Source: Botryllus schlosseri | Taxonomy: Eukaryota | Direction: 5' to 3' | NCBI GenBank assembly: GCA_051294905.1 | Contig: CM119372.1 | Location: 5,334,001-5,398,000 of the forward strand | DNA length: 64,000 nucleotides | In this document: one piece after another, positions 13,595 through 48,454 of the stretch | Layout of the letters: every line of letters starts with the position of its first letter | How positions within the stretch are numbered: the stretch's first letter is position 1 | Translations under genes and position numbers: made by a program | The notes under the pieces: generated by a model | Told to the model about the DNA's origin: nothing | What the model saw: only the letters and a program-made list of their open reading frames with translations | The model's database searches: none

Positions 13595-23171
<9,577 letters not shown>

Positions 23172-25809: not shown

Positions 25810-27403
25810 GATATATATATATAGGTCTAGCTCTGTCTGCATTCAGACTAAGAGCACCATCACCGAGGTGATGGAAATATCCATCGAAAAAGGACACAGC
25901 AATAAAGATTTCAAATATAAATTAAATTTCGCGTGAAAGTGCTGCTTTCGAAAATGTCCTGATGTCGGTATCGTTCCGATTAAGGACATTGTTCATCAGC
26001 GTTGCAGACGGTCTTCCTTTCTTGGTTCTCCTTTCATCTTCAAAGGTTATCGACTTCACGACACTATCATTAGGTTTCCGAATTATGTGGGCAAGAAATT
26101 TAGCTTGTTGGTGATCAATAAAGGATGAGAGATCTTCAGTGCGACAGATTTTATGAAGACTTTTATTACTAATTTTGAAGGCGTGGCCGGTTCCCTTTCG
26201 AGTGTAGCCTCCATGTATCATTTTTCGCAAAAATTGTCTGTAGCAGACATCCAGGACGTTTCTTTGATTTTCTGAAAGAGACCATACGCTGCAGCCATAT
26301 GTGAGTCGACTTCTCACAAAAGCATTTAAAAATTTTATTCTTGTACCAATCCAAATTCTGAAGTTTCGAAGCAGGTATTTATTGGATTGGAAAGCTGCAT
26401 GAGCCGAGCTGATCCTGTTGTTGATTTCGGTTATTCCCACATTCGTTTCCTTATAGTGAACAATACACCCAAGGTATTTGAAAGTTTTTACGTTTTCAAT
26501 ATGATGATTATGCAGAGAGCAGATTGAAGTCGGGTAAGCCAGTTCTTCATTGTGGTTAAATATCATAGTTTTTGTTTTCGACTCATTAATTTGTAATCCG
26601 AAATCAGTAAGAACTTCTGATAGCAGTTTCAGGCCTTCCTGGAGAGAAGATTGGTCTTTGAAAAAGAATTCAAGATCGTCCGCATAGCCTGAGCCCATGT
26701 TGACAGCTGTTCCTTGGTAGTTTTTGTCCCTTTTATTTTCTCGTGCATAGTCCGGTGTGCGAAAATGATACTGGCTGAAAGCGATATCGGTTAGTTCCAC
26801 TCTGTGTAGGAAAACCCTCACGGCATAGTCCATGTAAAGATTGAAGAGGATAGGGGACTCGGGACCGCCCTGTCGAACTCCAGATTTTGTGGAAAAAGTT
26901 TGGTTAGGGTGGCTTTTCAGTTCGGTTGTTGTGGATCGATATAGAGAGGCAAGTAAGTTCACGATTTTGGTTCCCTTATCCTCACCGATTCGATTTCGTA
27001 GCGACTGAATTAGCCAGGTTCTGTTGACGTGGTCGAACGCAGAGGAGAGATCGACAAACAAGGCATATGTTTGTATATCAGTTTTTTCCGCAATGATTTG
27101 AGACTGCTTCGTGACATATATACAGTCGATGGTTCCCTTCCCTTTTCTAAAGCCACATTGGAATTCGAGAATTTGCTGGTTATACCATTCCTCTATTCTT
27201 GATATGATTATTTGTATTAACAGTTTACAGAATACACTTCCAACTTGAATAGCGCGATATGTTGATGGATCGGTTCTGCTTCCTTTGTTTTTCCATATGG
27301 CAGTTAGCTTGCTATGGCCGAATGATTGGGGTAATTTTTCAATCTCCCATATTGTTTGGAACAATTCTGTAATTTTATCCATGATCAATTTTGATGACGC
27401 CAT
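25810..27403 (-). mobile_element. 5'-truncated non-LTR retrotransposon (LINE): uninterrupted 493-aa RT ORF 27403-25922, short 3' UTR and (TA)n tail
   Basis: RT motifs YRAI, QCGFRKG, FVDLSSAFDHV, GVRQGGPESPILFNLYMD, YADDL, GLQINESKTK and FKYLG. No endonuclease domain upstream. (AT)n run at ~25810-25823. Confidence 0.92.
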
Positions 27404-27834
27404 AGTTATCTGTATTTCGATCTATTTAACAATACTTTGATTGGAAATAGATAGAAGTCGTTTAAAAAGACTTTTATACGTTCCTACATTCTTGATTGAG
27501 TTTTTTAAGCTGAGGACGGGGGTTCACGGGTTTGGGTTTATGGGCTGACCCTTTTTTTGTAACCAGAACGCCCAATCGAGAGGTGAGGTCACGATTATAA
27601 AAAGTTTAGGAACCCCTGCTCTAGATGCTATAGCTTCACCATTAAACACTATCCTGTATTGATGGATCAAAAGTGATTAGAGTTGGCATAAGCTGGTCGG
27701 ATATTAGATATACAATCCAATTACTATCCAATTTATGATGTAATTCAAACATGTAGCCTACTACACATTGTACAGCACTATAACATATCAGAAACTAGAA
27801 AGGACACTGGCGTCGATGTTCAACTTAATCACGA

Positions 27835-28839: not shown

Positions 28840-29740
28840 TAGGGTTGCCATACGTCCGAGATTTTCCGGACATGTCCGGAATTTCACTGTTCAATCTGCG
28901 TCCGGGAGAAAATTCTAAAATATGCCTAAATTTCCGGAATTCTGATGGCTTCAAGTAGGCTCATAATTTTACCGTAAACAACAAGAAAAAACAACATTGT
29001 TCTAGTGCAGATTTATGGCACATGAAATTTTTCTTCGCGCTGCGCCCGATTTAGTATCGCATATCTTGATTTTATTACGGGACTACAACCCTATCAAAAA
29101 CTGCAAAAATAAAACAAATAAAAATAGCTTTCACTTACTGAAATAAGTCTAATTGTCATCGGAATTATAGAACGGTATATTGCAAGAGTCTGTTGCGGCC
29201 GTTTAAATGCTTTTTCAGATATAGTGGTTCTAAACCTGGGGGTAGTTTGCCTTTATTCTGGGGTTCGCAAAAATGTGATGTTGAGCGTAATCAGCTTTCA
29301 AAATTACACGTAAGTAAGTCTGGGCATAGGAACATCGGTAACCGCAACACAATGGCCATAACGATGACCCTTTGCGACTCTCCGATTGTTCGAACAATGC
29401 CGATATTTCAGACTTGGAGGACGGATTCTAGGTGGATCAGTGCCTGATCATATTTTAATTTATATTTTTTGGAACCGGTGCAACAGTAGCTTTCGATCAA
29501 GACAGATTCAACAATTTCTGCACTCCAGAAGATAGCTTTCGGATTGCCAGAAATCCTACAGTCGCTTACGCAAAACAATTCTCTACTCCAGCCTCAGCGA
29601 AGCGGAACGAAGCTGCAAAATCGGTCGTTGCCGTTCCATGTTTACTTTCTATAATGTATTCGTTCATGCCTCATTATAAGACTAGATAGTAGGCGCTAAA
29701 GAATATCCGCAATTTGAGCCACAAAATATGGTAGCCCTCA
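28840..29740. mobile_element. Probable hAT-type non-autonomous element
   Basis: Begins TAGGGTTGCCATA with TCCGG subterminal motifs and ends ~TATGGTAGCCCT. No clean TSD. Confidence 0.5.
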
Positions 29741-30438
29741 CTATACAGCGGTTCTTAATATTCTGTCACAACATTGACGATCGCGATTTTTTTGATCACA
29801 CAATGGAGACCCAGGTTCGGGGGAGGTGGAGCGCTGACGAAGTACTATTTTAGCCAACTGGCCATGCCTATCTCTGTCACTGCGTGATACCAATCTTTGT
29901 TAGTTTTTTATTTTAAAGCTGATTTTCAGGAGCCTGTGGTCCAATAATGCTGACATGAATTTGCGTCCTCGCTTTGTCGTTAATTGTCCATTTTTCTCGT
30001 CTGATATTATACATTTTTCGACTGAAAATATGGTTACCCTAGTCTATAGTCGCCAACGATGTGCCACGACACACACACAGGCGTCTCAGTCGGATTACTT
30101 ATTCCAGTTACTGCTGGAATGTATTCAAATTCCCAAACTATTATACAACGCAAAAAACATAATATTCTTGATATAATTTGAACTTTCTGCCAGGTTTTCA
30201 GGGCGCTTTGGAATTGATCATCAGTTATGCACGTCATTTCCACCCCCATAAATCGGATAGTTGTGTAGACGCTCTGTGAAATAGAAGTAATATGATTAGT
30301 TTTATACGTGGCGGTGTTTTGTAAGAGCTTCTATCCATGTCTGAGCAAGATGCTCCATTCTGAATACGATATAAGAGAGGTCATTTGCGCTTCTCTTATT
30401 TGTATAGGTATCAAGCGAGATACTCACCAATACACGGC

Positions 30439-33400
30439 CTATGCGATGCAGTCATCTTTACAATTCATGCATGGTGAAATGCTAGAAACGCAGATATTTC
30501 GACATGCACCAGCAATGGCACCAATCGTACAATCAACATCACTTGCCGACGCACCTATACAGCATAAATTTCATTTTGAAGTATCAGTTAAATACCAAGT
30601 TTTACGCAGTGTACTGACTGCAAATATTCTTCACGCAGTCGCCACATGCAGGTGATGCGCCATCGTTTTCGGTGCAGGCACTTGAATTCTCGCACGCCGC
30701 TACGCATGACTTTGTTTGTGATGTCAAAATTTCTTCAAAATACATTCGATATCAATCGAGTGGATTCGCTTGAAATAGGAACTAAGCATACATCAGTCTT
30801 CTACATTTGCGTACTTACTCTGTTCGCACATTTTTTCACATTTGACACATCCTGCAATTTGCCTTCTGAATGCGACGGGACATTCGTCGTCTGGAACGGT
30901 GCTGTTTCCCATACATTCTTCCACGCTGGTGTAACTGATGCCTATGACAATATATTATAGTATAGTTCAAAGTCTCTAGTTGTAACATTATTTTGTATAC
31001 TATTTATTAGGTCATATTGTCAGGAGTCAGTTATTGTTGAGATAAAATAATATAAGAATATATATTTAGTACTAATGCCCACACGTTGTAATTTTAAACC
31101 GAATGGAAGCTGTAATCCATCGGTCAGGAACCTATGGCTCGCGAGCCATATATGGCTCTGTTGGGTATAAGACAGTGGTTCCCTATACTGGTGGGGAATT
31201 CAATGGTTTTTGGTAGGGATTAGACGCATCTGTTAAACATGGTGTGGTGGCATGGTGTCCCCGTAAATGTGTAGTCTACCCAGTGTTAGGGGCTCAGACC
31301 CCCTTTTCAAAATCCTCAAATTTAAATTATTGTCGCGCCGGCGACTAATATCACTCGCGAATTCGATATTACCGACTCGAAATCTCATATTGCATGATAC
31401 GTTGATGGACCAAAGGGAATAGCAGATATGACGACGCCCACGTGACAACGAAGCCTTCAGATGCACATTGTCTTCCTGATCTGCGGCGTGAAATGAACTG
31501 CCGCGGAAGTGACATTCACCATTACAAAGTCGAATTACAAACAACACCATAGCTATTCACGTTCTTGATTGGTAAGTAGCTTTGCAGTACTGGCGATAAA
31601 ATGTAGGTGTGCAGTGCAACGTTAAATGTAACACCAAATACTTTGAGAATTGAGAAGTCGATCAGAATGAAGATTTTCGGAATTCGTGCGACAGTTACAT
31701 TCGATTAATATCAGTTATAATAAGTTCTAATCTATTGCTGTGCCCTAACTCTCTTTCCGCGCTTTAGTTTCGAAAAATAAATATGCAAATGGTGTGATTC
31801 TGGGAGAAAAAATTTCAAAATCTAGTCATTCGTGAACGTCGATCGAAAATACCAATAGTAATTGTAGGATTCACAATTTTCGTTCTCTCATCGTGACGAC
31901 AGGTGAGGCACTGCGTCACTTGCCTCCCCTGACACCACGTCACTGGTGTATCACACCTTAGAGTGGGTATATACTGCTGTAGTGACCATGTTTGGCTCCA
32001 CCTATACGCATGTGATCATGCACTGTAAAAAATCTGGTAGATTTACTGGGAAATCTCTGTAAATTTTACCACGAATTACCGGTCGCAGCCAATTACTGTA
32101 CGTAGCTTGTCATTTTACATTTTGATATGTAATATTACCTTAATATAGCTGTAAGGTAAGTTACCAGAATTTCTTCGCAAAATTACTGACAGTTACTCGT
32201 TACTGCAGTTTACCGGGCTATTGGCAAAATTGATTAGCATCAAAATCGCTGCAGCCAATGTATACGTAGAACTGAATGTTACTGATATATCATTCTAGAG
32301 GTGATTTCACCTGACTGAACCTCGTTTGCGAGACTGGGGTCTGTCATACCGAAATTGTTGGCCCTAGTATCAATTTAAGCTTAGTATAGGGTACAAGAAA
32401 TAACTGACAATCGTAGCTAATGTGGTATACCGTAGCCATATTATATTATAAGGCAACGGCTGTACGGCCAGTCTCGCTGGTTACATTCGTTGTCACGGAT
32501 AAGGCTGATAAGTTAGAAAATTAGTTCAGGATGTATAATATTGCTCGGGGAAACTAGAAATATCAGCACCGCATGCCCAGCTGACCATTTGTTAATGGCG
32601 GACAAGGCGACCAAGGCGACCAAGGTTACATAAGGTGACTGCTTTTTCTGAGATTCGTAGTAAACAACCAACGCACAACTGTGACATCACAAGCAGCGTC
32701 TGGTTAGGTAAGTACAGTAAGTAGTGAACAACACATGGAATATATATCAATTTATACGAAATTTGATGAAAAAAGGGACTATATGCAATGCTAAATGTTT
32801 CTGTATGGAAAAAACGACCCAGATCAAACATTATAACGTGGCCAGTAAATATTATGGTGTCATGTGTCAGCGGATGAATACCATTTATTTCGAAATCGCG
32901 TTCGAGTGTCGTCTGGCCAGTGGCCATTAGTGAGATTTGAGCAAAGGGTGGAGCGAAGCTTGTTGTGCTTGAAGAAAGTGGACACGGTCGTTGAAGATTC
33001 CTAGGAATGCTGAATGGAATACGCATCTTAAAAGGTAATACAGTACTACATAGTATTTGTTACCGTGAATATCTGACTCTGCACACCAGACTCGATGACT
33101 TAGATTTCATGATTGATATATTTCATTCGCCGTATTCTCTGTTCTATTTTGGGATATTTGTCGACTTATATAGTGACCACATACTCCGCTGCGGAGGTTG
33201 AAACTGTTGGCTTGGTAATGTCATTTTCGGGCCATAGCATAGATATGTTTTCATCCACTGCTGGATTTGTTTGCCACACAAGCCACCTTAAATTAGGAAC
33301 CTTTTGCTTCAATACAGAGATTAAGTCATGAATCTCTGCTATGTCATGTAAAAGGCGGAGCCGTCATCACACAATGTGCCAGTACCGGTACTTCAAAACA

Positions 33401-36400
33401 TGTTATATTTTTGTTAGCCCATTTGTCTTAGTCTTTATAATGTCATGTCCACTGTCCAGGTTAGGAACTTTGCTTTATATAGCGACTTACGCATGAATTC
33501 TTTTTAGTGGAACTGCAAGATACTACTTACACAGAAGGAATGAGAACGAGAAAAAGAAACAATTGGAAGTTTGGCCGGTGGTGGAATTAATTCACGTTTT
33601 CTTGAGACCACCTGTGTTACTGCATGTCTCCTAAAGAAGAATTAGACCTCCAGCAGCAATATTTTTCCATCGATAACCACTTCATCGTGATATCATGAAT
33701 ACAGTTTGTTCCAATGTCGTTTTGGGGATGTGAAGAAAATGTTGCGATATTTTTGCATCGGGTTGCTTTGCGATAGGTATGGATGTGCGTGAATTTACAA
33801 GCTGGTATGTAATCCTGATTTACAGAGACAGCATGTAGGTAGGTAGGCGGTAAAATGACAGTCGCGATCGCAAATGTACAGGAGAACATGTAGGTTAGAT
33901 ATACCGGAGGTGACTGTAACATTACAGTCTGGCGTGTAAAGTGAGATTACCGGACGAGTGTAAGTTAAATTTACATTGACTAACGGTAATGTTAGATTAC
34001 CACGAAATGTCTGGCTACCGTGCTTCCAAACATTTCGCGGTAAATCGAGGTTTTTATTTTTTACAGTGTGGGTTCTCGCATTTAAAACGAGCATCACGAC
34101 ATACGTTTTCGTAACTCAAGTTTCGAATGCTCAGATAAGGCAGCCATAGCATGATTAATACGAGGTTTTACAGTGAAAATGTGGCGCACACAACGAATCC
34201 CATGTAGTGAGTTCGAATAAGTGCTACCGTGGCGTCACGAACTTTCAATTGCGACGTAACAGTTGGTTGAGATGTATGGCTCTTTGGGAGGTAACACGGA
34301 AAAAATAGGGCCGATATGCATATCAGTGAAGACGCTATCATTAAATCGCAGGGCTCTTCCAACCGGGCAAATATAAAGAAATATATACCGCAAATCTTTT
34401 CAATAAGGTTGTCACAATTCCTCAGTGTCAATTCTGGCTCCGTATTTACTGCCATGCAAGGTTCTGTCTGTGAGCAGTATCGCTGGCATGTACTCATCGT
34501 AGCATCTGTTAAGGAATGTTTGATTTTGATACTGCACGGCGCATGCTGTTTGCAACTATAGGAACGTGTGCACGGCGATCGATGAAGTGGTACTGGTCCA
34601 CCCATAGCCATGATGCACACAGTGAATGTGGAATTCAATATCGAAACAGTCTTATTTTAAAGGTCTATCCGAGGCTCGGACGAAAGGCATCAGGCCATGA
34701 ATCCAAATGTTTTCATTACCCGTACGGCGTACGCCTTACCTCTTTCGCACTTATGATGGCATTTAGAGCAGGCAATGGTTACAAACCGGAACGATTGAGT
34801 GCATATCTCGTCATCGACATTTTTTATACGCTCCAGACATCCTACGAAGTCTTTTGCTGTGCCTGCAAAATACGTATAAATCGTGAAATCTTGTGCTCCT
34901 CTATTACTTTCTCTCAGTTGTAAACAGTATGTTCACCTCCATTAGCGAAGGATACATTGCATTGTGTATCCGCCAACGCTTCGCACATCATCGGCACATT
35001 TGTTGACGTCATTTTCTGGACTGTCTGGCAGATTTCGGAGGCGTCACAGTCGCTATCACACCGGCTCGGGGCATCATTGCGGTCTGCATCTCGGGAATAA
35101 TCTGTAATGGCGCATGCCTGTGTGTTATCACGCAACAATCCCCACATTGGCAGCAATGCCTACCGCCACGCTGGCAACTTTCTTGGCACCGCAAACAAAC
35201 GAGAGCTTGGTCTCTGGTTGCTGATGGGCATTGTGTATTTAAAATGTTCTTTGTCTTTGCGAAACACTCGGAACTAAAGTTGTCGCCTGTGAAGTTGCAT
35301 GTTCATTATGTTTCGAGAAGGCGGATCTACCGCTATGTCTGATGCATTATATTATACTGTGCAAAACGATTCGAGTAGACGATTCTAAATCGAGTAATAA
35401 TTTTAATGATTCAAGTCGAGTAATAGCGAGAGATGAAATTTTCGATACTATTTTCCGCTGCGGAAAGCTGTAAACCTCTATTGGTCGAAACTATGTTGTA
35501 CAAAGATACGTACGTTAGTGGAAATGACATAGCTGTGAAGTCGTGAGCAACCCACGTATACTGTCACAAACTGCAATATGAAATGTATCGTCGAAAAAAT
35601 GCCAAATAATAGCACTGGTACTATATTCTTTGTGGTCGTGTACGAGGTACAATGGTACATCATTCAACTTTCCACAAGATTCATACTTTTGTGACATCAC
35701 AATTCGAATGATACTCATATACCAGACTCGATTCGAAGCCAAGTACCCGCTTCTAGAATCGAATCACTCGGGTACTCGATTTTGCACAGCCCAAGATAAA
35801 CCGTGATGAGGGCCCTGACAGCGAGTCACGCAGCTCCAAAACTTGGATTCCATATTCCCAGTCACTAGGAACTTTCGTTGGCAAAACTGCGGGCTTACTC
35901 GAGTTTTCGGCATCGGAGATTGGATGTAGCCTACGCGTATCAGCAGGTATAACTGTTGTGTTCAGGGTTCACAGATATCATAATTTAAAAAAGGACAACA
36001 CTGTACGCGTTAGCCTACATTATGCAAACTATACTTTTGAAATTACCACAATGCACGTTCGTGAAGTTATTGCAATCCTGTTGTATCTTAGAAGTCAGTC
36101 CGCTAATATGCATGCATTCCCTCGTTTCTCCACATTGATCCACGCACGCCTGCTTGTCGTCGTCATTATCGCCACCTTCCATAACTTGTCCTTCCTCATA
36201 AGTAGTAGAGACGACTAAAATCAAGATGAAAAATTAAGACGGATTGATTAACTAACTTGCCAAGGAAAATTTTTCAGAAAGGTCTTCTATATATTGGATG
36301 TTAGCTCCATCTTTTATTGGCTCAGCGATTACGCCGGATAGGACAGGGAGAAATTGTACATCTATGTATCTCGTGACTGAGAATAGGAATCGGCATTATA

Positions 36401-39400
36401 TAGCCTTAATTCTGCGACTTGAAATTGATAGTATTGGGATTACCGTCGCTGGCCGTTACGTAGCGGATTTGTCGACTCACCCGCCTCACATCTTTGGTCA
36501 CATTTCAAACATTCGATTGCCGCTTGTCGAAATGACTGACTGCATTTCTCGTCGGCGACAGTCGTTATCTTTTCGAAACAGTTTATGACTTCACTTTCGC
36601 TGGCTCCTGTTAAAAAGAATCAATCTTCTGTTTCATCTGCCCCCATATACATATCTCTGTGGACACTGCACAGTGTATTACTCGCGCACAGTTAAGGAGA
36701 TAGCGGGAAACGTTCTAGTAATCTAGTTGCAGCAATATAATATTAAGTTGAGGCTTACCGATGAGCCTATGCTCATTGCTTACTGCCCATAACACGTAAC
36801 TGAAAGTATGTCTACTGACTAGGGATGGTGTGAACCTCTGAAAGTTTCAGGTTCGTGTGAACGCGAACCTTTTTGAAAGGTTCTGCGTGAACGCGAACGT
36901 GAACCTCATGACGTCACGTGACGTCATATTGATAATTCCAACCCTACATTTCAGTGAAGTGTTAGCGTATATTAATATACATGATACCTAGCGACGACTC
37001 GGGCCACACAATGCCACTATGCTGAAGTACATATTGACGGTTCAAACGTCGCCAAATGTATCAACTGCATGGGGCGATCAAATGATATAATAATCCCATA
37101 AAATCAATATATTCCGTCGCTTTGCCAACAATTTCAACGAGGACTTTTAGCAGTTTCTGGTCGCATTTTCAAGCACCGGTACCAACAAACGAAATCCCAA
37201 TAGTGTGTTGGCTTCGAAATTACAATGAAATGTCGGTCTTGGCCGTCTGAATCTCGAGTCAATGACTTGCTTCGAGTCATGCGCAATGACTCGAGTCCAA
37301 GTCGAGTCAATACACAAATTGACTCGAGTCGAGTCGAGTCATTTCCGTATTTTGAGAAAATGACTCGAGTCGAGTCGAGTCATCCGAAAATCGTGACTCG
37401 AGTCTGACTCGAGTCGAGTCATGACTCGAGTCATTACAACCCTGCTTGCTACACGATGTTACCCCATTAACAAGTTATACAGCAGTAGCCAACACCCCAA
37501 TGTCACGGATTTGGTTTTTATGGTACAATAAACATATGAAATCAAGATTGCCCCGTGCGCCTGCTTTATTTTTTACATCATACAAACGAAAGCGATATCC
37601 ATTTCATCGGTTGGCTGAATAAGCATCATTCGCTGAATACCTATATGTAGCGGATTTCGCCCTCGATGTTGTGTGATTGCGGGTCAAGATCACAGCAGAG
37701 AGTCACTAAATATTCGAGCAAACTTTTCTAACAAAGCAAGTAATATTTTTGAAATTGTCAAGGCACATGATCGTTTAGTGTTGATTTTTTATGCTGGCAG
37801 CGCCGTGCACTGCATTGCATATAGTGGCCCACAGTTGAAATGCAATGAATTTCAACCTAAGACGTTATAACGAAGTGAAAATTGTAATATATGGAAAAGG
37901 TTCACAGTGCAGAACCGACCAAGGTTCGTTTGTGAACGTGAACCTCTAAATTTGCTAGGTTCACACACAGAACGGGAACGTGAACCTCGCGTTCACACAC
38001 CATCCCTACTACTGACTATAGAGCTGGGGACAATGATACTAGTATTGAATCTGAATAGAGCATTAATTCTAATGATTCGAGGCGAATTGTGAGAGATTAA
38101 TGTTTCGAGTACAGAAATTATACGCTCTTTCACACTTCATGCTAATTTATTAGTGAGGATTATATTTTCGATGCTAGTTTCGACCGTGGAAGGATTTTTT
38201 AACAACAGAACTACAGGTAAAAAGTGGGCAATTCAGGGGAGTCAAGCCAGAGTGTTGACCATTTTTGTAGTCAACACAACAAGATGTTCAGTAAATATTT
38301 CAAAATCGCTGTTTTGAATTTCGGTGAACTAACTTTTATGATTTGATAGACGTGTCCTGCTTTACCGATTCAAAAATATGGGAACCCTCGTTAATATGGG
38401 TGCCATCTTCGAAGCAAACCTTTCGGAATGATATAAATTACATCAACTGCGGTTGTGGAATTCGAGATATCTAATAATCTTGATATAAGCTAACAAGCTC
38501 ATATGAAAAAACTTGTACGCGCAATTGTAGTTCACGGTACACAATCAAAACAATGACGATGTGGATAAGTATTATCATGGAAGCAATATTTAATAATCGT
38601 AAGAAGCATATTTTAAAATTATATTCTCATAACGGCCCAACAACTTTATCATTGTCCAATGTCCATTTATGATTAGAGTAAATAAGAACTTGCGTTACTA
38701 CCTTCGCCGATGTCGTAGTTGCAGTTTGTCATGGCTAATGCTCTGCAGCGTGGTACGTTAGCCTCCTTGGACGCATCAAAATTCTTACAACTTGTAGAAG
38801 CTGTGCAATCTGCACGGCATGAATTTTCTACTTCGTCATCATCACCGTCATCTGAAGTCGGGAAGGGCGCTGGGTGTACTGAACACTTGTCCAAAATTCA
38901 AGCCTACCGTCACTGTCGCATCGCTCCTCGCAGCGCCAACATGCTATCGCCTTGTTTCTGATCCCGAAAGGACACCTTTTATCGGCCTGCTTCTTCATTG
39001 CCATGAAGCACGAGAGAGATGCCTCGTCATCTACTTGAAAATCATCTCATGATGAGTGGGAATGGCTTTTCCGTGGATGGGGTAACGCATTACATAGGTG
39101 CTACATGTCGCATTTGTAATTAGATTTAGCTTTAAGCATATCACATAATACTCTTCCTATAGTTGACCTGGGTGATTAACTTTAACATGGAACATATATA
39201 TCTTAAAAGAAGCGTCAAATGTAGAATAGGGGGCTTTTCGGGGTCGAAATAGCTTGATGTTTTGGAGACGATGAGAAATCCACCCCCAGCAGGGAACTAT
39301 AGGGAGCCTAACGCATCAATATAACAGATTAAGGGTCACACACGTTATTGCCTACTGGTTCATGGCAGTTACAGATTCGCTCTAAAGAATACATATCATC

Positions 39401-42400
39401 AAGAAGGGTATATTCACAGTCATCCTTCGTTAATTTGTCATTTCGTGAATAGGGAAACTGACACCAATATATTTGCTAGGGGTACCAAGCAAAAGTTTAT
39501 GCTCAGTTTTTCATACGCGTGCCAATATTCTTACCGCAATACTGGTCTGCGAATTCACTGCAGCCTTGTTTCTTTTTATCAGGTAGATTCGCAACGGATT
39601 TACACGCTCTTGTCTCTTCGCATTCGGCGAGGCATTCCTCTTCATCGTCGTCATTGCTTTCAGAATCGCTCTCGTACCTGTCGCTATCTTTTCCGTCTCC
39701 GTCGTCATCTAAAGTCACCGAAACGAATTATTCATAAGTTGGGTATTGAGACTGATTGGTGGTTAACGCGCCGGAGTAATAAGTTCATGATAAGTTGTAT
39801 AGAGACAGACGACTAAAAACGACACGATGAGAAATTAAGGTGGATTGATTAACTAATCTGCCAAGGAAAGTTCTTCAGAAAGGGCTACTCAAGTAGTAGT
39901 AGAAGTAGCGACGCAAAAATCTGCTCAAGTACGAGTAGAAGTAGTCTTTTTAAAAGCAACCTAAAGCTACTTGAAGTAGACGTAGAATTTCCTAGCTTAA
40001 AATCTACTGTCAAAATCTACTGGACTGTCAAAAGCTGCAAATTGAGTTATACGGAAGGTGCAGAGAGCTTGATTCATGTTGATACATCATTTCAAGAGCA
40101 TAAGCATCATTTGATGCAAATGATAGTATCGCTATGGACACTAATCTTTGTTTACCCGAAGACCCCGTTTTAGAAAACGTCATGGTGCGGCGCCCTCACC
40201 CATATTAGTAGGCTCGTAGTTTAGTCGAAGAACAATACCAACAAGCTGTATCGGATACGCCGATACGGTGTTAACACTTTGCGAGATTAGTATACGTTAA
40301 TAAAAAATATGACGGATCGTGAACCATAGTGTAATTTTATTTTCGGAAAATAGAGGCATTACTACACTTGCTTTTAAACTTGTAAGATGTAAGTTCTCCA
40401 GATCCAGACAAAAGAACTGAAAATAATTAGAACTCAAAACTAATGATACTGTGAATTAAAAGAGAAATACCAGCATTACTTCTTAAAAGAGAAATGTGTT
40501 ACGTCTCTTGCCCAGATAGCTTGAAAGGTGGTCAGCTAAAACCGGTCTCGCGCTCAAAAAGTCAGAGACCACTTTACTAGATTAGGACACGCCATGCTGG
40601 GCTGCTAGATTACGATATGATAGGTAAAGACTAGATTGTGAAACTACTAGTTTCAAACGTTATGATGGGCCATATTTACGGTGATGAACTATTTCATTTG
40701 GGTGACAATACGGTTTGAGTAAAGGGAGCCATGCTACCGCTACCTAAATTTTAAAGCCTTATCACCGATACTTTCGTGAAAACATACTTGTCACTCCATA
40801 TCTACTTTGCGGGATGAAAATTCTGGGCTTTACTTAACTTGCATGAAAATTAAATGTTGGTACTCCATGAACACATCGCCGAAATTTATGAGTCTCTCTT
40901 TCGAATTGGAGAATTATACTACCTCTACTTGACAAACTAAAAATAACGAAAAGTAAGTAAGTAGAACACTAAATAGGACGAATTAGAAGTAGAAGTAGCG
41001 AAAATGAGATGTACTTGAGCAAGTACCACAAGTAGTGAAAAAATACTAGAATACTTCGAAAAAGTAGAAGTACTTCGTTACTGACCACCTCTGCTTACAT
41101 ATTGCATGATAGTAGCGCCTTCTTCTGTTGGGTCAGCTAATTATTGTACCGGATAGAAAATGGATGTGGACTGGACAGCTCTACGTATCTCGTGACTGAG
41201 TCGGATCGGCATCATAGCCTCAATTCCGAGACTTGAAATTGGTAGCAATGGGATTTCCATCGCTGGCTTCCAGAATTCCTACCTAAGTGTTGGAGGTTTA
41301 TCTAGACTCCTCCTCGCCATCTCATTCGTGTGAGCGGTGTCTTGAAATGCCGAGAAGTGGGGCGTGCTATACAAGTCGGCAGTTACAGAATCAAAAATAA
41401 CGAATATCGGCCTGGTGTAAATGACTGCTGTTACCCAACGGAATTGTCGACTCACCTGGCTCACATTTTTGGTCACATTTCAAGCATTCGATAGCGGCTT
41501 GTCGAAATGACTGACTGCATTTCTCGTCGGCGACAGTCGTCATCTTTTCGAAACAGTTTATGACTTCACTTTCGCTGGCTCCTGTTAGAAAGAATCAATC
41601 TAGTATTTCTTTCATCTGTCTCTAATCTCCATACATATCCTGTGATCACTGCATAGTGCACACTGTGCACACTGTGCTGGCACGCAATTGGGGAGATAGC
41701 AGGAAATGTTCTTGTAGCAGCAATATAATATTAAGGTAAGGCTTACCGATGAGCAGCCTATATGCTCATTGCCCGTAACAAATAATCTTTAATGTCATGT
41801 AGAAGTAGAAGTGGCATTACATTGTTTTAGTCGCAAAAAAGGTACGTATTTGCACTGTCCAGGTGTCCACGTCATTCATTCTATTGTGACGTCATCACGG
41901 GCGATATTCGAGTACTCTGCAATAAGCCTAATACTCGACTCAGAATATAATTACTCAAGTATTCGGATTTGCCCAGCCTTAAGTTTGACGTAATGGAAAA
42001 AGTTAACTGATTAATGTCAGTTAATATTAGTGCCATCTCCGGAATAATCCTTTCGTAATTATAAATTATATCAACCGCGGTTGCGGAATTTGTGATATCT
42101 ATTAATAACTAACAGGCTGATATCACGAAGCTTGAACCCAATTGCAGTTCGCGGCACAAAATCCGAACAATAGCGATGCCGATAAGCATTATCAAAACCT
42201 ACGGTAATAATAACTATGACAAACATATTTTAAAATAATATTGTCGTAGCGACCCAACAACTTTCTTATTTGTCCATTTGTGGACCTCGCTTGTAGTACC
42301 TTCGCCGATGTCGTAGTTGCAGTTTGTCATTGCTAATGCTCTGCAGCGTGGTACGTTAGCTTCCTTGGACGCATCAAAATTCCTACAACTCGTAGAAGCT

Positions 42401-44973
42401 GTGCAATCTGCGTGACATGCGCTATCTACTTCGTCGTCATCATCATCATCGTCATCATCATCATCGTCATCATCTTCATCGGAAGTTGGGACGGGCGCTG
42501 GGTGTACTGTATTTGTACAATGTACGTTAGGGTTGTTCAGTTTTACCGGATTCCGGCGATTCACTGAATAAATTATTCGGTTGGAAAAACCTAACAATTT
42601 ATTCAGCGAATCACCGGAATACGAAAAAAGGTAATTTTTGGACAAACCTACAGTAGAATTGTACGAAATTCAACACGCATATCAAGCCTACCGTCATTGT
42701 CGCATCGCTCCTCGCAGCGCCAACATGCGATCGCCTTGTTTCTGATCCCGAAAGGACACCTTTCATCGGCTTGCTTCTTCATTGCCATGAAGCACGAGAG
42801 AGATACCTCGTCATCTACTTGGAAATAACCTCATGAAGAGATGGAATGGCTCCTGCGTACTGTGGCAACGCACTATACAGGTGCAGGGTACTATATTTGC
42901 CGCAACAGTAATTACGTTTAGTTATTCGCATTTATAACACAGCGCCATTATTAGTTGACCTGACGCTTGGACCCTGAACAATGGACATTGAACATATATT
43001 TTATAAGAAGCGTCAAATACAACGCTGCAGCCTGCAGGCTATTCGCGGTTGAAATAAATGGGTTTGTGCTGACGATGATAATTCCACACCTCATCAGGAA
43101 ACTAGGAGGGCTAACGCATCAATCATCATCATCAGTTTAATCAATTTTTTATCAAATCGATGCACCGCAATATTTGCAATATAATGAAAAGACAGGAGGG
43201 TGCCCAGACGAATAAGTAGTAATGGGACGCACACATTATAGCCTACTAGTAGGCCTATGGCAGGTTCTGATTTGTTCTAAGTAAGACATATCATCATTAT
43301 TCATTATTATGTAAGAAACTGGATATGTTGACAGTAATACTCTGCTAATTTGCCGTTTCTCGAATATTTAAAGTTTCACAAATATCTTACTAGCGTCACC
43401 AAGCAGCAAGTTTGGTCAGTTTTTCTCATGTGTGCCAATATTCTTACCACAATACTGGTCTGCGAATTCACTGCAGCCTTGTTTATTTTTTGCAGATAGA
43501 TTCGCAACGAAATTGCACGCTCGTGTCTCTTCGCATTGGGCGATACATTCCTCTTCATCGTCGTCATCGCTTTCAGAATCGCTCCCGTACCCGTCGCTGT
43601 CTTCTCTGTCTTCGTCGCCATCATCTAAGTCACCGAAATGAGTTGTGTATTGAGATTGTATTGAGGCTGGGCAAAATGTTTCGAGTATTCGAATCGGAAT
43701 CGATTATTAATTTTAATGATTTGAGTCGAGTAGTAAAAGACGATTTTGTCGAGTACTGAAATTATACGCTCTTCGCTCTCCACACTCTCCACGCTCGCTC
43801 TCTACACTCTTCGCTCTCCGTCGCCAAAAGCATCTCGATGGTGCAGGCAAAACCGAATACCCCCCTTCTCTCTCTCTCGCCACTGAAAGTTAATTTATCA
43901 ACGGGAATTTAATTTACAGTACTATTTTCCAATGTGGTAGCCTTGAAACCTTGATTGTCCGTATCGCGGCATACAAAACATAGTAGAAAGCTAAAAGCGT
44001 TACTAGAAATTACACATTTACGAAGTCTTGATCATCCCACAACATTTTCACAAAGTGCAATGAAATCAGCATGGTCGAAAAATATACCAAAGTATTTTTA
44101 ATGCGATGGATAACAGGCATTGTATTCTTTGTGATGGCATAAAAGGTGCATATTTGAACATACTCGAAGCATAATGCGTGATTCAGAATCGGATCACTCA
44201 GGTACTCGATTTTGCCCAGCCCTAACTGGTCGGTTTCCGGGGCGGATTACTCCCAATATCACACTGTGGTTAACCAGAAAAAAAGATCTTAGCCGGTCAT
44301 ATCGCCACATCCAGTTACATTGAGTTTTGTGACCATACTGTTCCTCATAAAGCAGTAGTAGATATATACTTACTACCATGTAGTTCATAGCATCGGTATT
44401 CGCATGTCAGACAAGGAACGGCAACGCGACTTATTCGCTTGCTGCAGCCCCCTTTCATGCTCGCAGCGAGTGAGGCAAGGCACTTGGTCACGTCATCTGC
44501 ATCTTCTATGGTAAAATATGTATATTTAAAACATTTTCCATCCGTCTATTCGGTATTATGGTGCCTAGATCGATATTTGCAGGTATAGTAACCTACCGCA
44601 GGTGTCCTGAATATAATCTATGCATTTCTTCACTTTCTTTTTTGGCTTCACTTTTTCCAGTTTCATACACGCCTTGCCCTTGTGACATTCATCCTCACAT
44701 GAATATTCCAAGTCAAGTTGCCTTCTCCGTGCTGTCAGCAGTAAAACATTGTGTTTAGCATCAGATTTGTAATAACCGGATGACTCAATGAAATATCGGC
44801 GAAAGTTCTACCTAGAACAGCCACGAAAAGGTATAGATGTTTTGTTCACGTATCCATGGATTTTAAATGTGTATCTCTAGTAGTAATACTAGTCGATGAA
44901 TTGAAGATATTTTACCGTTGCAAAATCCCGCCGCCCACACAGCTACGAGTAAAATCAAATAAAAAGCTTTCAT
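30439..44973 (-). CDS. Secreted ~870-aa cysteine-rich tandem-repeat protein (9 two-exon modules of 10-12 Cys, acidic linkers; vanabin-like spacing), 19 exons
   Basis: Exons 44973-44916 (signal MKAFYLILLVAVWAAGFCN), 44731-44597, 44505-44374, 43624-43448, 42817-42692, 42506-42300, 41581-41456, 39708-39535, 39033-38908, 38878-38702, 36606-36481, 36214-36047, 35286-35164, 35101-34937, 34862-34740, 34505-34389, 30941-30819, 30732-30619 and 30554-30439 (TAG). All introns are GT-AG phase 1, all internal exons are multiples of 3, and there are no internal stops. Confidence 0.82.
35357..35793. mobile_element. MITE with TCGAGT-rich subtermini (related copy at ~43664-44224)
   Basis: CTGTGCAAAA...TTTTGCACAGCCCA. 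The related copy GGCTGGGCAAAA...TTTTGCCCAGCCCTA shares internal sequence. Confidence 0.6.
36820..38008. mobile_element. hAT-type element (TAGGGATG termini) carrying a nested GACTCGAGTC-repeat element fragment at ~37240-37445
   Basis: TIR TAGGGATGGTGTG...CACACCATCCCTA. Perfect 8-bp TSD CTACTGAC at 36812-36819 and 38009-38016. GTGAAC subterminal repeats. Confidence 0.9.
39885..41093. mobile_element. hAT-like element with AGTA-rich subtermini and GACCACCTCTG end
   Basis: The right terminus reads CAGAGGTGGTC on the minus strand, and the same terminus occurs at ~22654-22664. The paralogous intron at ~36280-36300 lacks the insertion. Confidence 0.6.
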
Positions 44974-46504
44974 CCTGCGAAGTCTAGCGACTGTTACGAG
45001 GCGAATGATGTTAGTCGCCTTCTGCAGCGAACTATACGCTGTAAGATTTTTCTGCAAATTACCATCCTTGTCAAAGCGCCTCGAGTGCGATGACAACATA
45101 ATGGCAGTTCGGGAAATGATCCTTATTTTTCTCGCACTTAATTCGAACGCGACAAAGATTCAGATTTTGTCAAGGATCCCCACGTTTGTCACGGCGAAAT
45201 ACTTGTTTCGGTTTACAAGTGCTTCTTGATATTGTAACGAACCATAGCCACACGGTTGTGTAATGTGTATGTCCAATTGTCCATCGTTCGGAAGATATCT
45301 TGAAAACGATATCATGAAATTGACAGGAAATCGTGAATAATATAAGTTTATTACATATGCGTAGGCTACTGAAAAGTGTTGTGTACTAATTTTTCAAGTC
45401 GCGGTCGGTCGCAACATGGCTATTGCTATAGCTGTAATTTTCCCATCGACATCCATGACCCAATGGAGGTTATACTCTCAAAATAACCTGCGAACAAATG
45501 GATCTCTTATGTTAATGCCCGGAATATTCATATAAATATATGTAGACATCGCCCTTATTATAGAACCAATCTTTGTTTTCGTGAACTTACATGTCATAAT
45601 TGAGAAAGGCTCGTCAACTTATGTGATGATTCAAAAGGCACGAGCAGTCGATGTTGTTGGATGAGCATTCCGTCTACAAATTATGTTGTACTCATATATA
45701 GGCTAGTGATCATGATAGTATTTGACCGTTGTATCGGCGGACGCCTAATCAGATCTTATGAATGAACTCCCTGCTCTGTATTCGAGAAAGTTTTCAAAAT
45801 AGATATTATGTGGCGATGATAACAGCAACATAGCCTATTATGAAGCTGCTATATGACCTCACAGGCCTTCTCGCCAGACAGACTTTCTGTTCAGGGACGC
45901 CAACGTCGTTTTCTGTTGCGCGCGCTTGCTAGTCGTCTCTAAAGTCGGAACATGATTCCCAGAAAACTTAATACTGTTAATATCAATGACACATACATGT
46001 TTCTTTTATTTCAGTTTAAATCTTCAGCGTTACATATATGCCAAACGCGATTTAGCCAATTTTTACTTGACAAATATGTTTGAAAAGCAGCATGCGAAAT
46101 TTGGCGAAGTCGTATGAGTCCACCTCCACAGATTTCATTATTTTGCATGCTATCCCGAAAATTGATTACAGATCATGATATGGATTGAGCATCTGCCGGT
46201 CGGCATAATGATAACGGATAAGCTGTGCGATTTGTCGTGTAATATTTCACGAATGACGATACAACGATACAACACGACGGCATTACTGGACATACGAATT
46301 GTTCGCTCTCGATCCGCTTATCCATATCGATATTGCACATTAACAAATAATCGAGCCCATAAATTGCATAGCTAATCACAATCGATATTCATTCGCGGGA
46401 TTCCAGAATCAGAACAGAGGAGCTACTACTCTAGATCGCATAGTTGTGTATGCGAATTCGAGCGCATGTAAGCACTAAGCATTCAACAACTTACAGCCTG
46501 TACA

Positions 46505-48454
46505 ATGAAGAGCAGGTCGGCGATTTCAGCTTTTTTCGCCGCAGTCATCTCTGGCTTGATATGGATCTTGGTTGCGGTAGCCGGAGTGATCGAAAACAGC
46601 GGTGGTGCATGGTCGCAGGACGTACGGAACGGTGAATTTCCATTTTACATTTGTGTTTACAAATCTGCAAATTTTCCGAAATCGATTCCTTATCATAATT
46701 TAGATAAATGGTAGGCCTATATAGTCAGCGGCGTAATCACCGCACCATCAGCACGCCTTATTCGATTATATATAAAAGGTACGGCGAGATTCGGCTGGAT
46801 AGTGAATGTAGCGCGATTGAGTACGTATTTGATTGTGTTTCTCGACGTTAATGGGATGAACTAAAGATGGCTGACGTGAAATCGTGACCGTGATAAAATT
46901 AAGGCTAGTGTTCTTGTGTGTAAAATTGTAATCAACATAATAATTATTCCTTTCCTGAAATTGTCGGTGGTTGCTAGGTTGTATATGGCGACGTAAGTAG
47001 CCTGTAAAATCGAGCCGCATATTATTTGATTAAAATTTCACTTATAACCATATTATAGCTGTAAGATAAGATATGTCCTTCCTATCCTTATAATCGCATC
47101 ACGATACGTGGTAAAGAATACATGTGTTGACAGTGTTTTTCAGGAATAGAAGCTACAGTTTGATGAGAAAATGGATGATAGACGTGACCCCCACTGCATG
47201 GTCCCTATGCATATGGGAATTCATTTACACGTGGAATACCTTGTGGGTCGTGTATTGCGTTTGTATAACATGCAGACCAGGTACTCGGACGTTTTATCTA
47301 TCATTGAAACCATAATTTCGTTGGATCGATATCAGTTTCAGATAAGATAAGCACTGGAGATACCGTAATATGCAGTGTAAATGCGTTTCCTCCGCTTTTC
47401 CATTGGCTATGGGGACTGTGCGGCGCTTCTCATCTGGCATGGTTTTTCTTCTGGGATAGAGAAATTCTCGTCGGCAGTGTGTTCTTTCAAGTATTTGTGG
47501 TGGCTGCCTGTATTGGATGCTTATACGTCTCATATACATCGGTAGATAGGTATGCATTTACAAAACACCCATTAGCTTTAAATTGTTAACGTTGAATGAG
47601 GGCGTATTTATATTTATCGGCTCCAATCACAACAAAATTGAAAAAAACGCGAAACCACTTTTTGAAATCTATTAATTCAAATAATTTGACTTGAAACTTT
47701 AGGTTTTGTTAGGGGATTAATTTATATAGTGCCGAGGGTAATTTATTGATATGGCCTCTTAATATTAAAAAAATTGACAAACAAACACTAAATCATTGAA
47801 GTCCATTAATGTAATTATGTCAACTTGGAATTTTAATTTCCTATTCGTAACCAGAATTCATTTATTCAGGAATGGTGCTCTTTTGCAAAGTTGTTATCCG
47901 TGGGACCTTTGGGTTTGTCGAACTCTTGTTCAAAATGGAATAGCTATGCTATGCACATGGTCTGCAATCCTCTTTCTTATCAACGTGGTACAGTTTATAA
48001 ATTTCATGTTCTTGCAAAGAGTAGATATCATCAAGAATATTTTTTTTTATCACAGGCTTCAATCCTAACGTATCACGGGGCAATTCCATCTTCCGTCAGC
48101 TCTCTCGGTGTTATCATTGTCATCGCCGTTACGCTTGTGTCGTGGTTCATTCTCGACACCTTCGTTTTGGATAGATGGGTTCGTTACACGTTCGCAGTGT
48201 ATCCTGTGATCGGATGGGGCAGTTTGTCGATGCTCGTGCAGCACTTCCAACCATGGACAAACTCGACTATTATTACATTATGCATTTTCGGACTGTCATG
48301 TTTGATATTCATCATTCGCGTACCTTTGGTAGTTTGGAAAAGTTTTAGCCACCCATTGTATATGAGCCATACTTTACCCCACGTAGTTAGACAGGCGTTA
48401 CCAAAAATTCCAAGTCCAAACCAGCCTGACCCTACTGCTTCCACGGTTTTATAA
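46505..48454 (+). CDS. Uncharacterised multi-pass membrane protein of the conserved 'ITPAxWxFxIW...WDRE...DLW..R.LVQNG' family
   Basis: Exons ~46505-46631, 47134-47280 (DVTPTAWSLCIWEFIYTW), 47342-~47549 (WFFFWDRE), 47870-47987 (DLWVCRTLVQNGIAMLCTW) and 48056-48454 (WFILDTFVLDRWVRYTFAVYPV...stop). Several hydrophobic segments. Family assignment is from recalled motifs. Confidence 0.8.

Follow-up and report, generated by a model that had tools for sequence, protein, structure and literature searches.

A Botryllus schlosseri gene encoding a predicted secreted chain of cysteine-rich modules and its possible relation to vanabins

Vanabins are ascidian proteins built on a single core of 18 conserved cysteines (16 in VanabinX). 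They bind V(IV) via Lys/Arg residues, carry hydrophobic leaders, and have been reported only from vanadium-rich ascidians; in VanabinX, an acidic tail enhances reductase activity (PMC9486056). The Stolidobranchia are a vanadium-poorer suborder. In a 64,000-nucleotide stretch of the Botryllus schlosseri genome (assembly GCA_051294905.1, contig CM119372.1, positions 5,334,001 to 5,398,000; henceforth termed the window), a sequence-only reading proposed a hidden 19-exon gene for a nine-module, ‘poly-vanabin-like’ secreted protein. This raises the question of what the locus encodes and whether its product is related to vanabins.

The gene is real and spliced. Nineteen coding exons run along the minus strand from 44973 to 30439, with 18/18 introns GT-AG and 18/18 in phase 1, and the chain reads through to one stop. 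The product has 868 aa, a pI of 4.4 and 93 cysteines, one in the leader and 92 in the remainder, close to the earlier estimate of about 92 in ~870 aa. RNA joints were directly seen for 10 of the 18 introns, and one more is fixed by contig arithmetic. Exon 1 (44916–44973) holds the ATG and the anticipated signal peptide, a predicted 19-aa leader with a hydrophobic core; its junction is absent among the RNA rows listed, and the RNA contig size is consistent with it. The hydropathy profile is highest at residue 4 and never rises above 1.41 further along, and the protein, which carries six N-glycosylation sequons, is predicted to be secreted. Exon 1A (44597–44731) opens with ARRR, as claimed, followed by five cysteines in a Lys-rich setting; its junctions are absent among the rows listed, and the size of contig X4/7 is consistent with them. 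Both the exon chain and RNA place exons 1B (44374–44505, five cysteines, joint 43624–44374), 2A (43448–43624, an acidic tract and five cysteines), 2B (42692–42814), 5B (36481–36606), 6A (36047–36214), 6B (35164–35286), 7A (34937–35101), 7B (34740–34862) and 8A (34389–34505), and joints 38878–42692 and 36605–38701 define exon 5A (38702–38878). The start of exon 8B (30819–30941), placed by the exon chain, falls on position 1700 of contig X4/7, precisely where it should if 8A is spliced directly to 8B. Chain and RNA also support exons 9A (30619–30732) and 9B (30439–30554), the latter containing the stop and continuing to a donor at 30428. An RNA joint in X4 (30269–30428) corrects the earlier model by adding a non-coding 3' UTR exon downstream of the stop (30100–30273, minus strand, 3' end approximate). 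An Rfam scan of 29000–47000 gave no matches, and the gene is the only module-bearing locus found in the genome.

Because two phase-1 exons encode each module, entire modules can come and go without disturbing the reading frame. The cysteine spacing is C-3-C-5-C-13/14-C-7-C in A exons and C-11-C-10-C-2-C-3-C in B exons, with a first gap of 10 in module 8, in agreement with the spacings first read from the sequence. The A motif occurs eight times in the real window vs 0 in 100 codon-shuffled windows; the B pattern, written with a first gap of 10, matched one real exon vs none in codon-shuffled windows. Regular modules hold 10 cysteines. Module 9 does hold 12, spaced 3-5-9-2-4-8-8-3-6-2-3, one extra in each of its six-cysteine exons 9A and 9B, and reads as a regular module plus two cysteines. 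Module 1 is Lys-rich, and the acidic tracts described before modules 2–6 appear as Asp+Glu counts of 17, 20, 16, 9 and 8 in linkers 1–2 to 5–6. Lys+Arg make up 9–21% of residues in regular modules and 4 of 70 in module 9.

The number of modules differs between this assembly and its transcripts. Exons 3A (42300–42506, a poly-Asp tract and five cysteines), 3B (41456–41581, a duplicate of 5B), 4A (39535–39708, a duplicate of 2A) and 4B (38908–39030, a duplicate of 2B) are placed by the exon chain, and transcripts seen join 2B to a 5A-type exon, skipping 3A–4B. Among the rows listed for the eight runs examined, none of the five introns from 2B/3A to 4B/5A was spliced, and depth was zero across 39002–39703, including exon 4A, in all four runs checked for coverage. 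A 3.7-kb block (38814–42485), which includes the 3' part of exon 3A, is missing from the DNA contigs of runs X17 and X18. Together with the skipping in transcripts, this indicates a seven-module form in those runs. The claim of nine modules thus stands for this assembly, and the transcripts seen give seven; likewise, RNA confirms much of the exon chain and bypasses 3A–4B.

It is conceivable, if rather doubtful, that the nine modules reflect an assembly artefact or a haplotype without expression, the seven-module protein being the only real one. The unseen junctions and zero depth would fit, as would the 4B–5A intron of only 29 nt; an in-frame AG at 38851 in exon 5A offers an alternative acceptor that would make it 56 nt and the protein 859 aa. 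Against this, divergence between the duplicate copies is 18% at synonymous sites and 17–27% in introns, vs ~2% (22 differences in 1100 nt) for another individual's allele; all four extra exons are intact; the duplication junction, near 39790–39810, joins non-allelic positions (the beginning of an acceptor like that of 6A and the intron preceding 2A); and rare variants get dropped from contigs. By these signs the nine-module form arose by an old tandem duplication, of which the block is one unit and which only this assembly shows. In the comparison of duplicate modules, 92 synonymous sites carry 16.5 changes (pS 0.18) and 391 non-synonymous sites 18.5 (pN 0.047), which indicates purifying selection, and the 19 exonic read differences classified among listed rows comprise 11 synonymous and eight non-synonymous changes. 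The 7/9-module polymorphism offers a clean case of in-frame module gain or loss through phase-1 exon pairs.

Searches of Pfam, PDB sequences and folds found no match for the module, vanabins included. Pfam scans of 14 exon peptides returned PAN_4 (E 0.015–0.02), B-box and Ole e 6, all weak, sub-threshold and rejected. PDB sequence searches gave no match for the B profile or for relative P0002; an eggshell-membrane Cys-repeat protein (E 0.0086, in four weak local pieces) and YTH1 (E 1.1), both found with the A profile, were rejected as cysteine-driven, as was ATP7B (E 0.83). An AlphaFold model of one regular module of P0002 is all-helical, with pLDDT of about 70–83 over residues 11–80; the P0002 models reached mean pLDDT of 47 and 59, with the terminal module under 50, from alignments that stayed shallow (5 and 11 rows) because MAFFT did not lay A and B exons onto one module. 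Neither model had a Foldseek match at E<=0.001. Wide VIA searches with these weak models peaked at Z 5.6 and 5.8 for unrelated helical chains, and Vanabin2 (1VFI), a bow-shaped four-helix fold, was absent among the 50 rows listed in each. An Atlas feature search gave no usable match for P0007 or its terminal module, and its structure search with the terminal module listed generic helical repeats of HEAT/PPR type (TM 0.52–0.67), all under the naming bar. Judged by the exon architecture and by the model of the single chain, A and B halves probably pair into one domain.

Among 1.84 billion representatives, two true relatives emerged: a 281-aa fragment and Styela clava LOC120329980 (XP_039252724.1), which is Sc.CG.S55.56 of PMC12992692. 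Word-based homologue searches, which miss relatives at ~30% identity, found none among 670 candidates with the B profile, only the query itself among 107 with P0002, and only P0001 among 2654 with Styela modules; P0003 and P0004, which do not have the cysteine pattern, were dropped. The Styela protein shares the leader, tandem 10-cysteine modules spaced 3-5-13-7-8-11-10-2-3 and a terminal 12-cysteine module, and aligns over 555 columns at ~26% identity (E near 1e-67); the window protein has the same family build. The 12-cysteine terminal module is kept in all three relatives, and first and last regular modules group across species (bootstrap 88 and 74). Module number varies, with seven vs nine between Botryllus haplotypes, i.e., six or eight regular modules, and five plus the terminal module in Styela. 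The Styela protein further differs in its less acidic linkers (pI 5.2–5.4 vs 4.4) and in two or three thyroglobulin type-1 (Tg1) repeats before its terminal module (profile match E 5.5e-50); its Tg1 region had no tblastn match in the window. In the passages of PMC12992692 covered, Sc.CG.S55.56 is treated solely as a Tg1 protein, its modules undescribed. It was pulled down from endostyle lysate via a Tg1 epitope and identified by mass spectrometry (score 5.9 vs 36.3 for ScTG-like); its transcripts occur in the posterior trunk of the larva and rise at larval–juvenile stages, around metamorphosis. The identifiers of this Styela protein do not occur in the supplement of PMC9953650. The architecture had been called undescribed, and we found no family match and no description of the module in literature on vanabins, ascidian Tg1 and LOC120329980 that took in few subscription journals. 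The module lies outside Pfam, PDB and Atlas families, has so far turned up in three places alone (this genome, Styela clava and one further assembly), and is small enough for expression and structure solution.

For the vanabin question, we compared cysteine spacings with shuffled spacings; p values are nominal, post hoc and uncorrected. In swapped order against Vanabin2, three terminal modules beat the shuffles (nominal p 0.02, 0.000 and 0.024), and the Styela terminal module fits VanabinP in normal order, with 12/12 cysteines matched (nominal p 0.015). Overall, terminal modules gave nominal, post hoc and uncorrected p values of 0.000–0.375, with 12 of 24 comparisons <=0.05, vs 4 of 24 for regular modules, which stayed above 0.05 in 11/12 normal-order and 9/12 swapped-order comparisons. 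The module 9 skeleton thus appears to resemble vanabins modestly, in either order, and modules 1–8 mostly do not. The swapped spacing originally reported for module 9 is partly supported by the Vanabin2 comparison and loses its distinctiveness in the normal-order fit to VanabinP. Since each half of module 9 resembles the vanabin C-terminal six-cysteine unit, the suggested circular permutation is unneeded. Nor is the ‘poly-vanabin’ label supported: regular modules mostly fare no better than shuffles, module 9 is Lys/Arg-poor, and the Vanabin-2 profile (PF11437) matched 0/14 exon peptides at E<=10, in a scan whose HMMER filters drop weak matches, and neither spliced relative (P0001, P0002) at E<=1. 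The genome holds one weak Vanabin-2 match elsewhere (E 6.84), failing the cut-off.

Shared features are the ascidian origin, leader, predicted helical and cysteine-rich character, the C-x2-C-x3/4-C end of each half, VanabinX-like acidic tracts and, nominally, a partial skeleton fit of the terminal module. In contrast to small vanabins with one 16–18-cysteine core and Lys/Arg V(IV) sites in vanadium-rich species, the protein has seven to nine modules of 10 or 12 cysteines, and its sole named relative comes from the Stolidobranchia. It is not a vanabin by definition, though the two may share ancestry. A bolder and rather doubtful reading makes the module the ancestral ascidian disulfide-hairpin domain that gave rise to vanabins, each module 9 exon encoding a six-cysteine helical hairpin like the vanabin C-terminal lobe; the vanabin fold would then be older than vanadium accumulation and would persist in vanadium-poor stolidobranchs within a secreted metal or redox scaffold of many modules and polymorphic length. 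Were this link true, it would provide a first handle on the origin of vanabins. We think it unlikely that the protein represents a multimerised relative of vanabins whose reversible disulfides and acidic tracts, the latter like those of VanabinX, serve to bind or reduce extracellular transition metals. The terminal skeleton, common phylum, all-helical prediction, leader and reductase-enhancing acidic tail of VanabinX (PMC9486056) speak for it, and the module cysteine counts, absent profile match, shuffle-like regular modules, Lys/Arg-poor module 9 and lower vanadium of Stolidobranchia speak against it.

We instead place the protein in an unclassified styelid module family and, as roughly an even call, favor a role for it as a beads-on-a-string scaffold outside the cell, in the mucus or matrix of the pharynx. 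The mRNA would yield a secreted protein of seven (here nine) modules, each regular one predicted to fold as a small domain of five helices with five disulfides, that might present protease-resistant, multivalent binding surfaces. Asp/Glu spacers would keep neighbouring modules separated and, through their charge, bind Ca2+ or other cations; since the Styela linkers are less acidic, such a polyanion role may be lineage-specific. The terminal module may serve as a capping or partner-binding end, ahead of which Tg1 domains would have been inserted in Styela. In nidogen, SMOC and testican, such domains serve as adaptors or protease inhibitors. From metamorphosis onwards, the protein could cross-link or condition a secreted matrix, any metal binding being incidental rather than vanadium storage or reduction. 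We counted for a scaffold the leader, the lack of a later hydrophobic stretch, the six sequons, acidic linkers, splicing, purifying selection, the architecture conserved in Styela, the Tg1 fusion, the helical module model, and the Styela endostyle detection and larval–juvenile transcripts (PMC12992692); counted against it was that this low-scoring detection concerns the Styela protein via a Tg1 epitope absent here. SMOC, testican and nidogen, returned through Tg1 in an Atlas structure search of the Styela protein (TM 0.12–0.19 by query), share a secreted modular build from symmetric exons and acidic stretches, whereas Kazal, SPARC-EC, EGF and G domains are absent from the window protein and its module is in no listed family.

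Besides such a scaffold, we see a slimmer prospect that the protein serves defence or protease control in blood or mucus, with inhibitor or microbe-binding modules that cleavage behind ARRR and within linkers might set free. The Tg1 fold inhibits cysteine proteases in thyropins. The Tg1 repeats of the Styela relative, haplotype differences in copy number and the basic ARRR directly after the leader would suit this role; the gene has no inhibitor domain, occupies one locus in the genome, and gives no hint of diversifying selection (a pN/pS near 0.26 in the duplicate comparison; 11 of the 19 exonic read differences classified among listed rows synonymous).

Least probable by far is a role in the endostyle as iodination substrate or thyroid-hormone precursor, a reading largely refuted for T3: the Styela orthologue is one of two proteins grouping with vertebrate thyroglobulin, came from endostyle and carries acidic-Tyr motifs near its N-terminus, but iodinated Sc.CG.S55.56 gave no T3 signal and ScTG-like (Sc.CG.S284.31) did (PMC12992692). 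ScTG-like and vertebrate thyroglobulin are linked to the window protein only via the orthologue's Tg1 repeats and endostyle origin; with no Tg1 domain and 658–868 aa, the window protein is far from the precursor signature of multiple Tg1 domains and >2000 aa, and a better ScTG-like candidate lies elsewhere in the genome (G000:C14). The module accounts for the larger, undescribed part of the Styela protein recently tested and rejected as an ascidian thyroid-hormone precursor.

Six-frame translation combined with a splice-site listing recovered 18 Cys-rich exons and a leader exon on the minus strand (44973 to 30439). The 19-exon, modular Cys-rich build proposed in the sequence-only reading proved accurate: all 18 introns of the rebuilt chain are GT-AG and phase 1, and the product, a leader followed by modules 1–9, each from an A and a B exon, has 868 aa, 93 Cys and a pI of 4.4. 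The A-exon Cys motif occurs eight times in the window and never in 100 codon-shuffled windows; the B-exon pattern, its first gap fixed at 10 in this chance control, matched one real exon and none in shuffled windows. The only long hydrophobic stretch is N-terminal and six N-glycosylation sequons are present; the protein is probably secreted, with its modules presumably held by disulfides.

The gene is real and spliced. Eight public runs were aligned to the window in two sets, and among the joints listed at least 10 of the 18 introns were seen joined, with CT..AC-type ends (1B/2A, 2A/2B, 5A/5B, 5B/6A, 6A/6B, 6B/7A, 7A/7B, 7B/8A, 8B/9A and 9A/9B). Six of these are also backed by raw reads from run X21, which is recorded as RNA (13, 5, 4, 1, 5 and 1 reads); raw reads of run X23 include none supporting the listed introns. 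A single 2231-nt contig of run X4 carries the exon chain, with 2B joined directly to a 5A-type exon. In it, 8B begins at 1700, the exact position demanded by direct 8A-8B joining, and the 390 nt 5′ of 2A fit 1B, 1A and the leader exon plus 65 nt of UTR. Beyond the stop lies one more exon, which is non-coding.

The 2B-to-5A joint recurs in an X1 contig, and an X2 contig holds the pieces in the same order. This is not mere exon skipping: an X17 contig whose intron sequence is unbroken passes from 38317-38813 straight into 42486-43586, X18 has the same two pieces split over two records, and depth over 39002-39703 is zero in all four runs of the second set. The block 38814..42485 constitutes a single unit of a tandem duplication, and alleles differ in copy number. 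Exons of 2A-3B and 4A-5B are 88-92% alike and longer, mainly intronic stretches 73-83%. The copies show 16.5 changes over 92 synonymous sites and 18.5 over 391 non-synonymous ones; for the allele of another individual the divergence is only about 2%. Purifying selection is evident and appears to have acted on an old duplication, and we regard an artefactual nine-module form as the less likely reading. The seven-module protein has 658 aa and 73 Cys, and the breakpoint of its allele probably lies inside the Asp-codon tract of 3A/5A. The 4B-5A intron of the nine-module haplotype measures 29 nt (38879-38907); an in-frame AG at 38851 in exon 5A, with no counterpart in the duplicate exon 3A, would make it 56 nt and is possibly a compensating acceptor. 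The duplication junction (39807-39889) retains a remnant duplicate of the 6A acceptor region, and none of the three frames from it into 4A is open.

A B-exon profile search of 1.84 billion representatives (E<=0.001) gave four matches, two of which lacked the Cys pattern and were discarded. Relatives are P0002, a fragment of 281 aa with 33% identity to modules 6B-9, and P0001, from Styela clava LOC120329980. Isoforms of the latter share with the Botryllus protein the leader, module spacing and terminal 12-Cys module, whereas they have five regular modules (one shortened in isoform X2) and, on the Styela side, 2-3 thyroglobulin type-1 (Tg1) repeats (E 5.5e-50). In a tree of 15 regular modules the first modules cluster together (88), as do the last ones (74), inner nodes being weak. 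When one exon, P0002 and P0007, another LOC120329980 protein, served as queries against the genome, module matches appeared nowhere but at this locus. The gene is conserved and belongs to an undescribed styelid module family, in keeping with the earlier failure to recognise its architecture.

Module 9 differs from a regular module by two added Cys, its spacings summing to those of the A exons (2+1+4=7) and B exons (3+1+6=10). Terminal and regular profiles align end to end over 68 columns (E 0.0014, probability 18%). Scored against the regular-module HMM, each of the three terminal modules surpasses all 200 full shuffles; Cys-fixed shuffles reach their scores in 4, 17 and 91 of 200, so the likeness is chiefly one of skeleton. 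A first AlphaFold model of P0002 was poor (pLDDT 47); in a second, one regular module folds into five helices (pLDDT about 70-83), with the terminal module under 50. Fold searches with these models returned no significant match.

According to PMC9486056, vanabins carry 18 conserved Cys (VanabinX has 16), use Lys/Arg to bind V(IV) and have been reported from vanadium-rich ascidians only; a preprint gives Stolidobranchia a lower vanadium content. The proposed vanabin link holds in part. PF11437 matched none of 14 exon peptides (E<=10) and neither spliced relative (E<=1), its one weak genome match, at another place, falling under the cut-off (E 6.84), and vanabin membership is not borne out. In a spacing-only comparison (1000 shuffles each, tests post hoc), p<=0.05 was reached in 12 of 24 cases for terminal modules and 4 of 24 for three regular modules. 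By the same post hoc measure swapped order fits Vanabin2 best, and in normal order all 12 Styela Cys match VanabinP. Either order works because the two halves are each similar to the C-terminal six-Cys unit of vanabins; the circular permutation suggested for module 9 is therefore unnecessary. Disulfide-stapled helical hairpins commonly show such i+3/i+4 spacing. Shared ancestry with vanabins is possible, and we doubt that the module is the domain that gave rise to them.

The Styela orthologue P0007 (XP_039252724.1) is Sc.CG.S55.56 of PMC12992692, whose passages on it place it in a set of ten Tg1 proteins recovered by immunoprecipitation from endostyle lysate and its transcripts in the larval posterior trunk, and contain no description of ten-Cys modules. 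Their text puts peak expression at the tail-regressing/tail-regressed larva stage, whereas the source values (supplement 6, Figure 2a rows) peak in the metamorphic juvenile in both repeats. These data and the T3 result below are literature on the orthologue, not on the window protein. For this modular, probably secreted, Cys-rich protein the reading we favour, at about even odds, is an extracellular scaffold: disulfide-closed helical modules would be its beads, polyanionic spacers would bind cations and the conserved terminal module would form a cap, the whole being deployed from metamorphosis in pharyngeal mucus or matrix. A metal or redox protein of vanabin type, favoured by terminal spacing and disfavoured by the Pfam result, is unlikely, and a defence or protease-control protein somewhat less likely still. 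A hormone precursor is very improbable; Tg1 repeats occur in the orthologue, and its iodination in vitro gave no T3 signal (PMC12992692).

Elsewhere in the genome, a minus-strand gene with many Tg1 exons lies at G000:C14:6313000-6338000 (L012-L014). By eye, these look very much like the Tg1-2 and Tg1-3 rows of ScTG-like in PMC12992692, which reports no clear orthologue of the ascidian thyroid-hormone precursor. The gene is a candidate for that orthologue. Its Tg1 exons alternate with exons that we take to encode TIL-type Cys domains.

Intron 8A-8B holds a 2.05-kb element (32018-34069) with CACTG...CAGTG inverted ends and TG flanks. All 40 scored genome matches, the window itself included, were 96-100% identical (from 757 candidates), and we presume a young non-autonomous CACTA/CMC-type DNA transposon. 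Within it lies a strongly read spliced leader exon on the plus strand (32939-33034 + 33506-33700; GT..AG, 473-nt intron), many of whose reads continue into dissimilar sequences; it may provide many loci with a promoter and first exon carried by the transposon. Minus-strand exons at 17520-18014, without a Pfam match, resemble glycyl-tRNA synthetase by motif. An open frame of 499 aa that encodes a reverse transcriptase domain (25922-27421, minus strand; E 2.8e-34) is likely a non-LTR retrotransposon, and the exon at 4636-5001 (minus strand; PF02931, E 7e-6) belongs to a Cys-loop ligand-gated ion channel.
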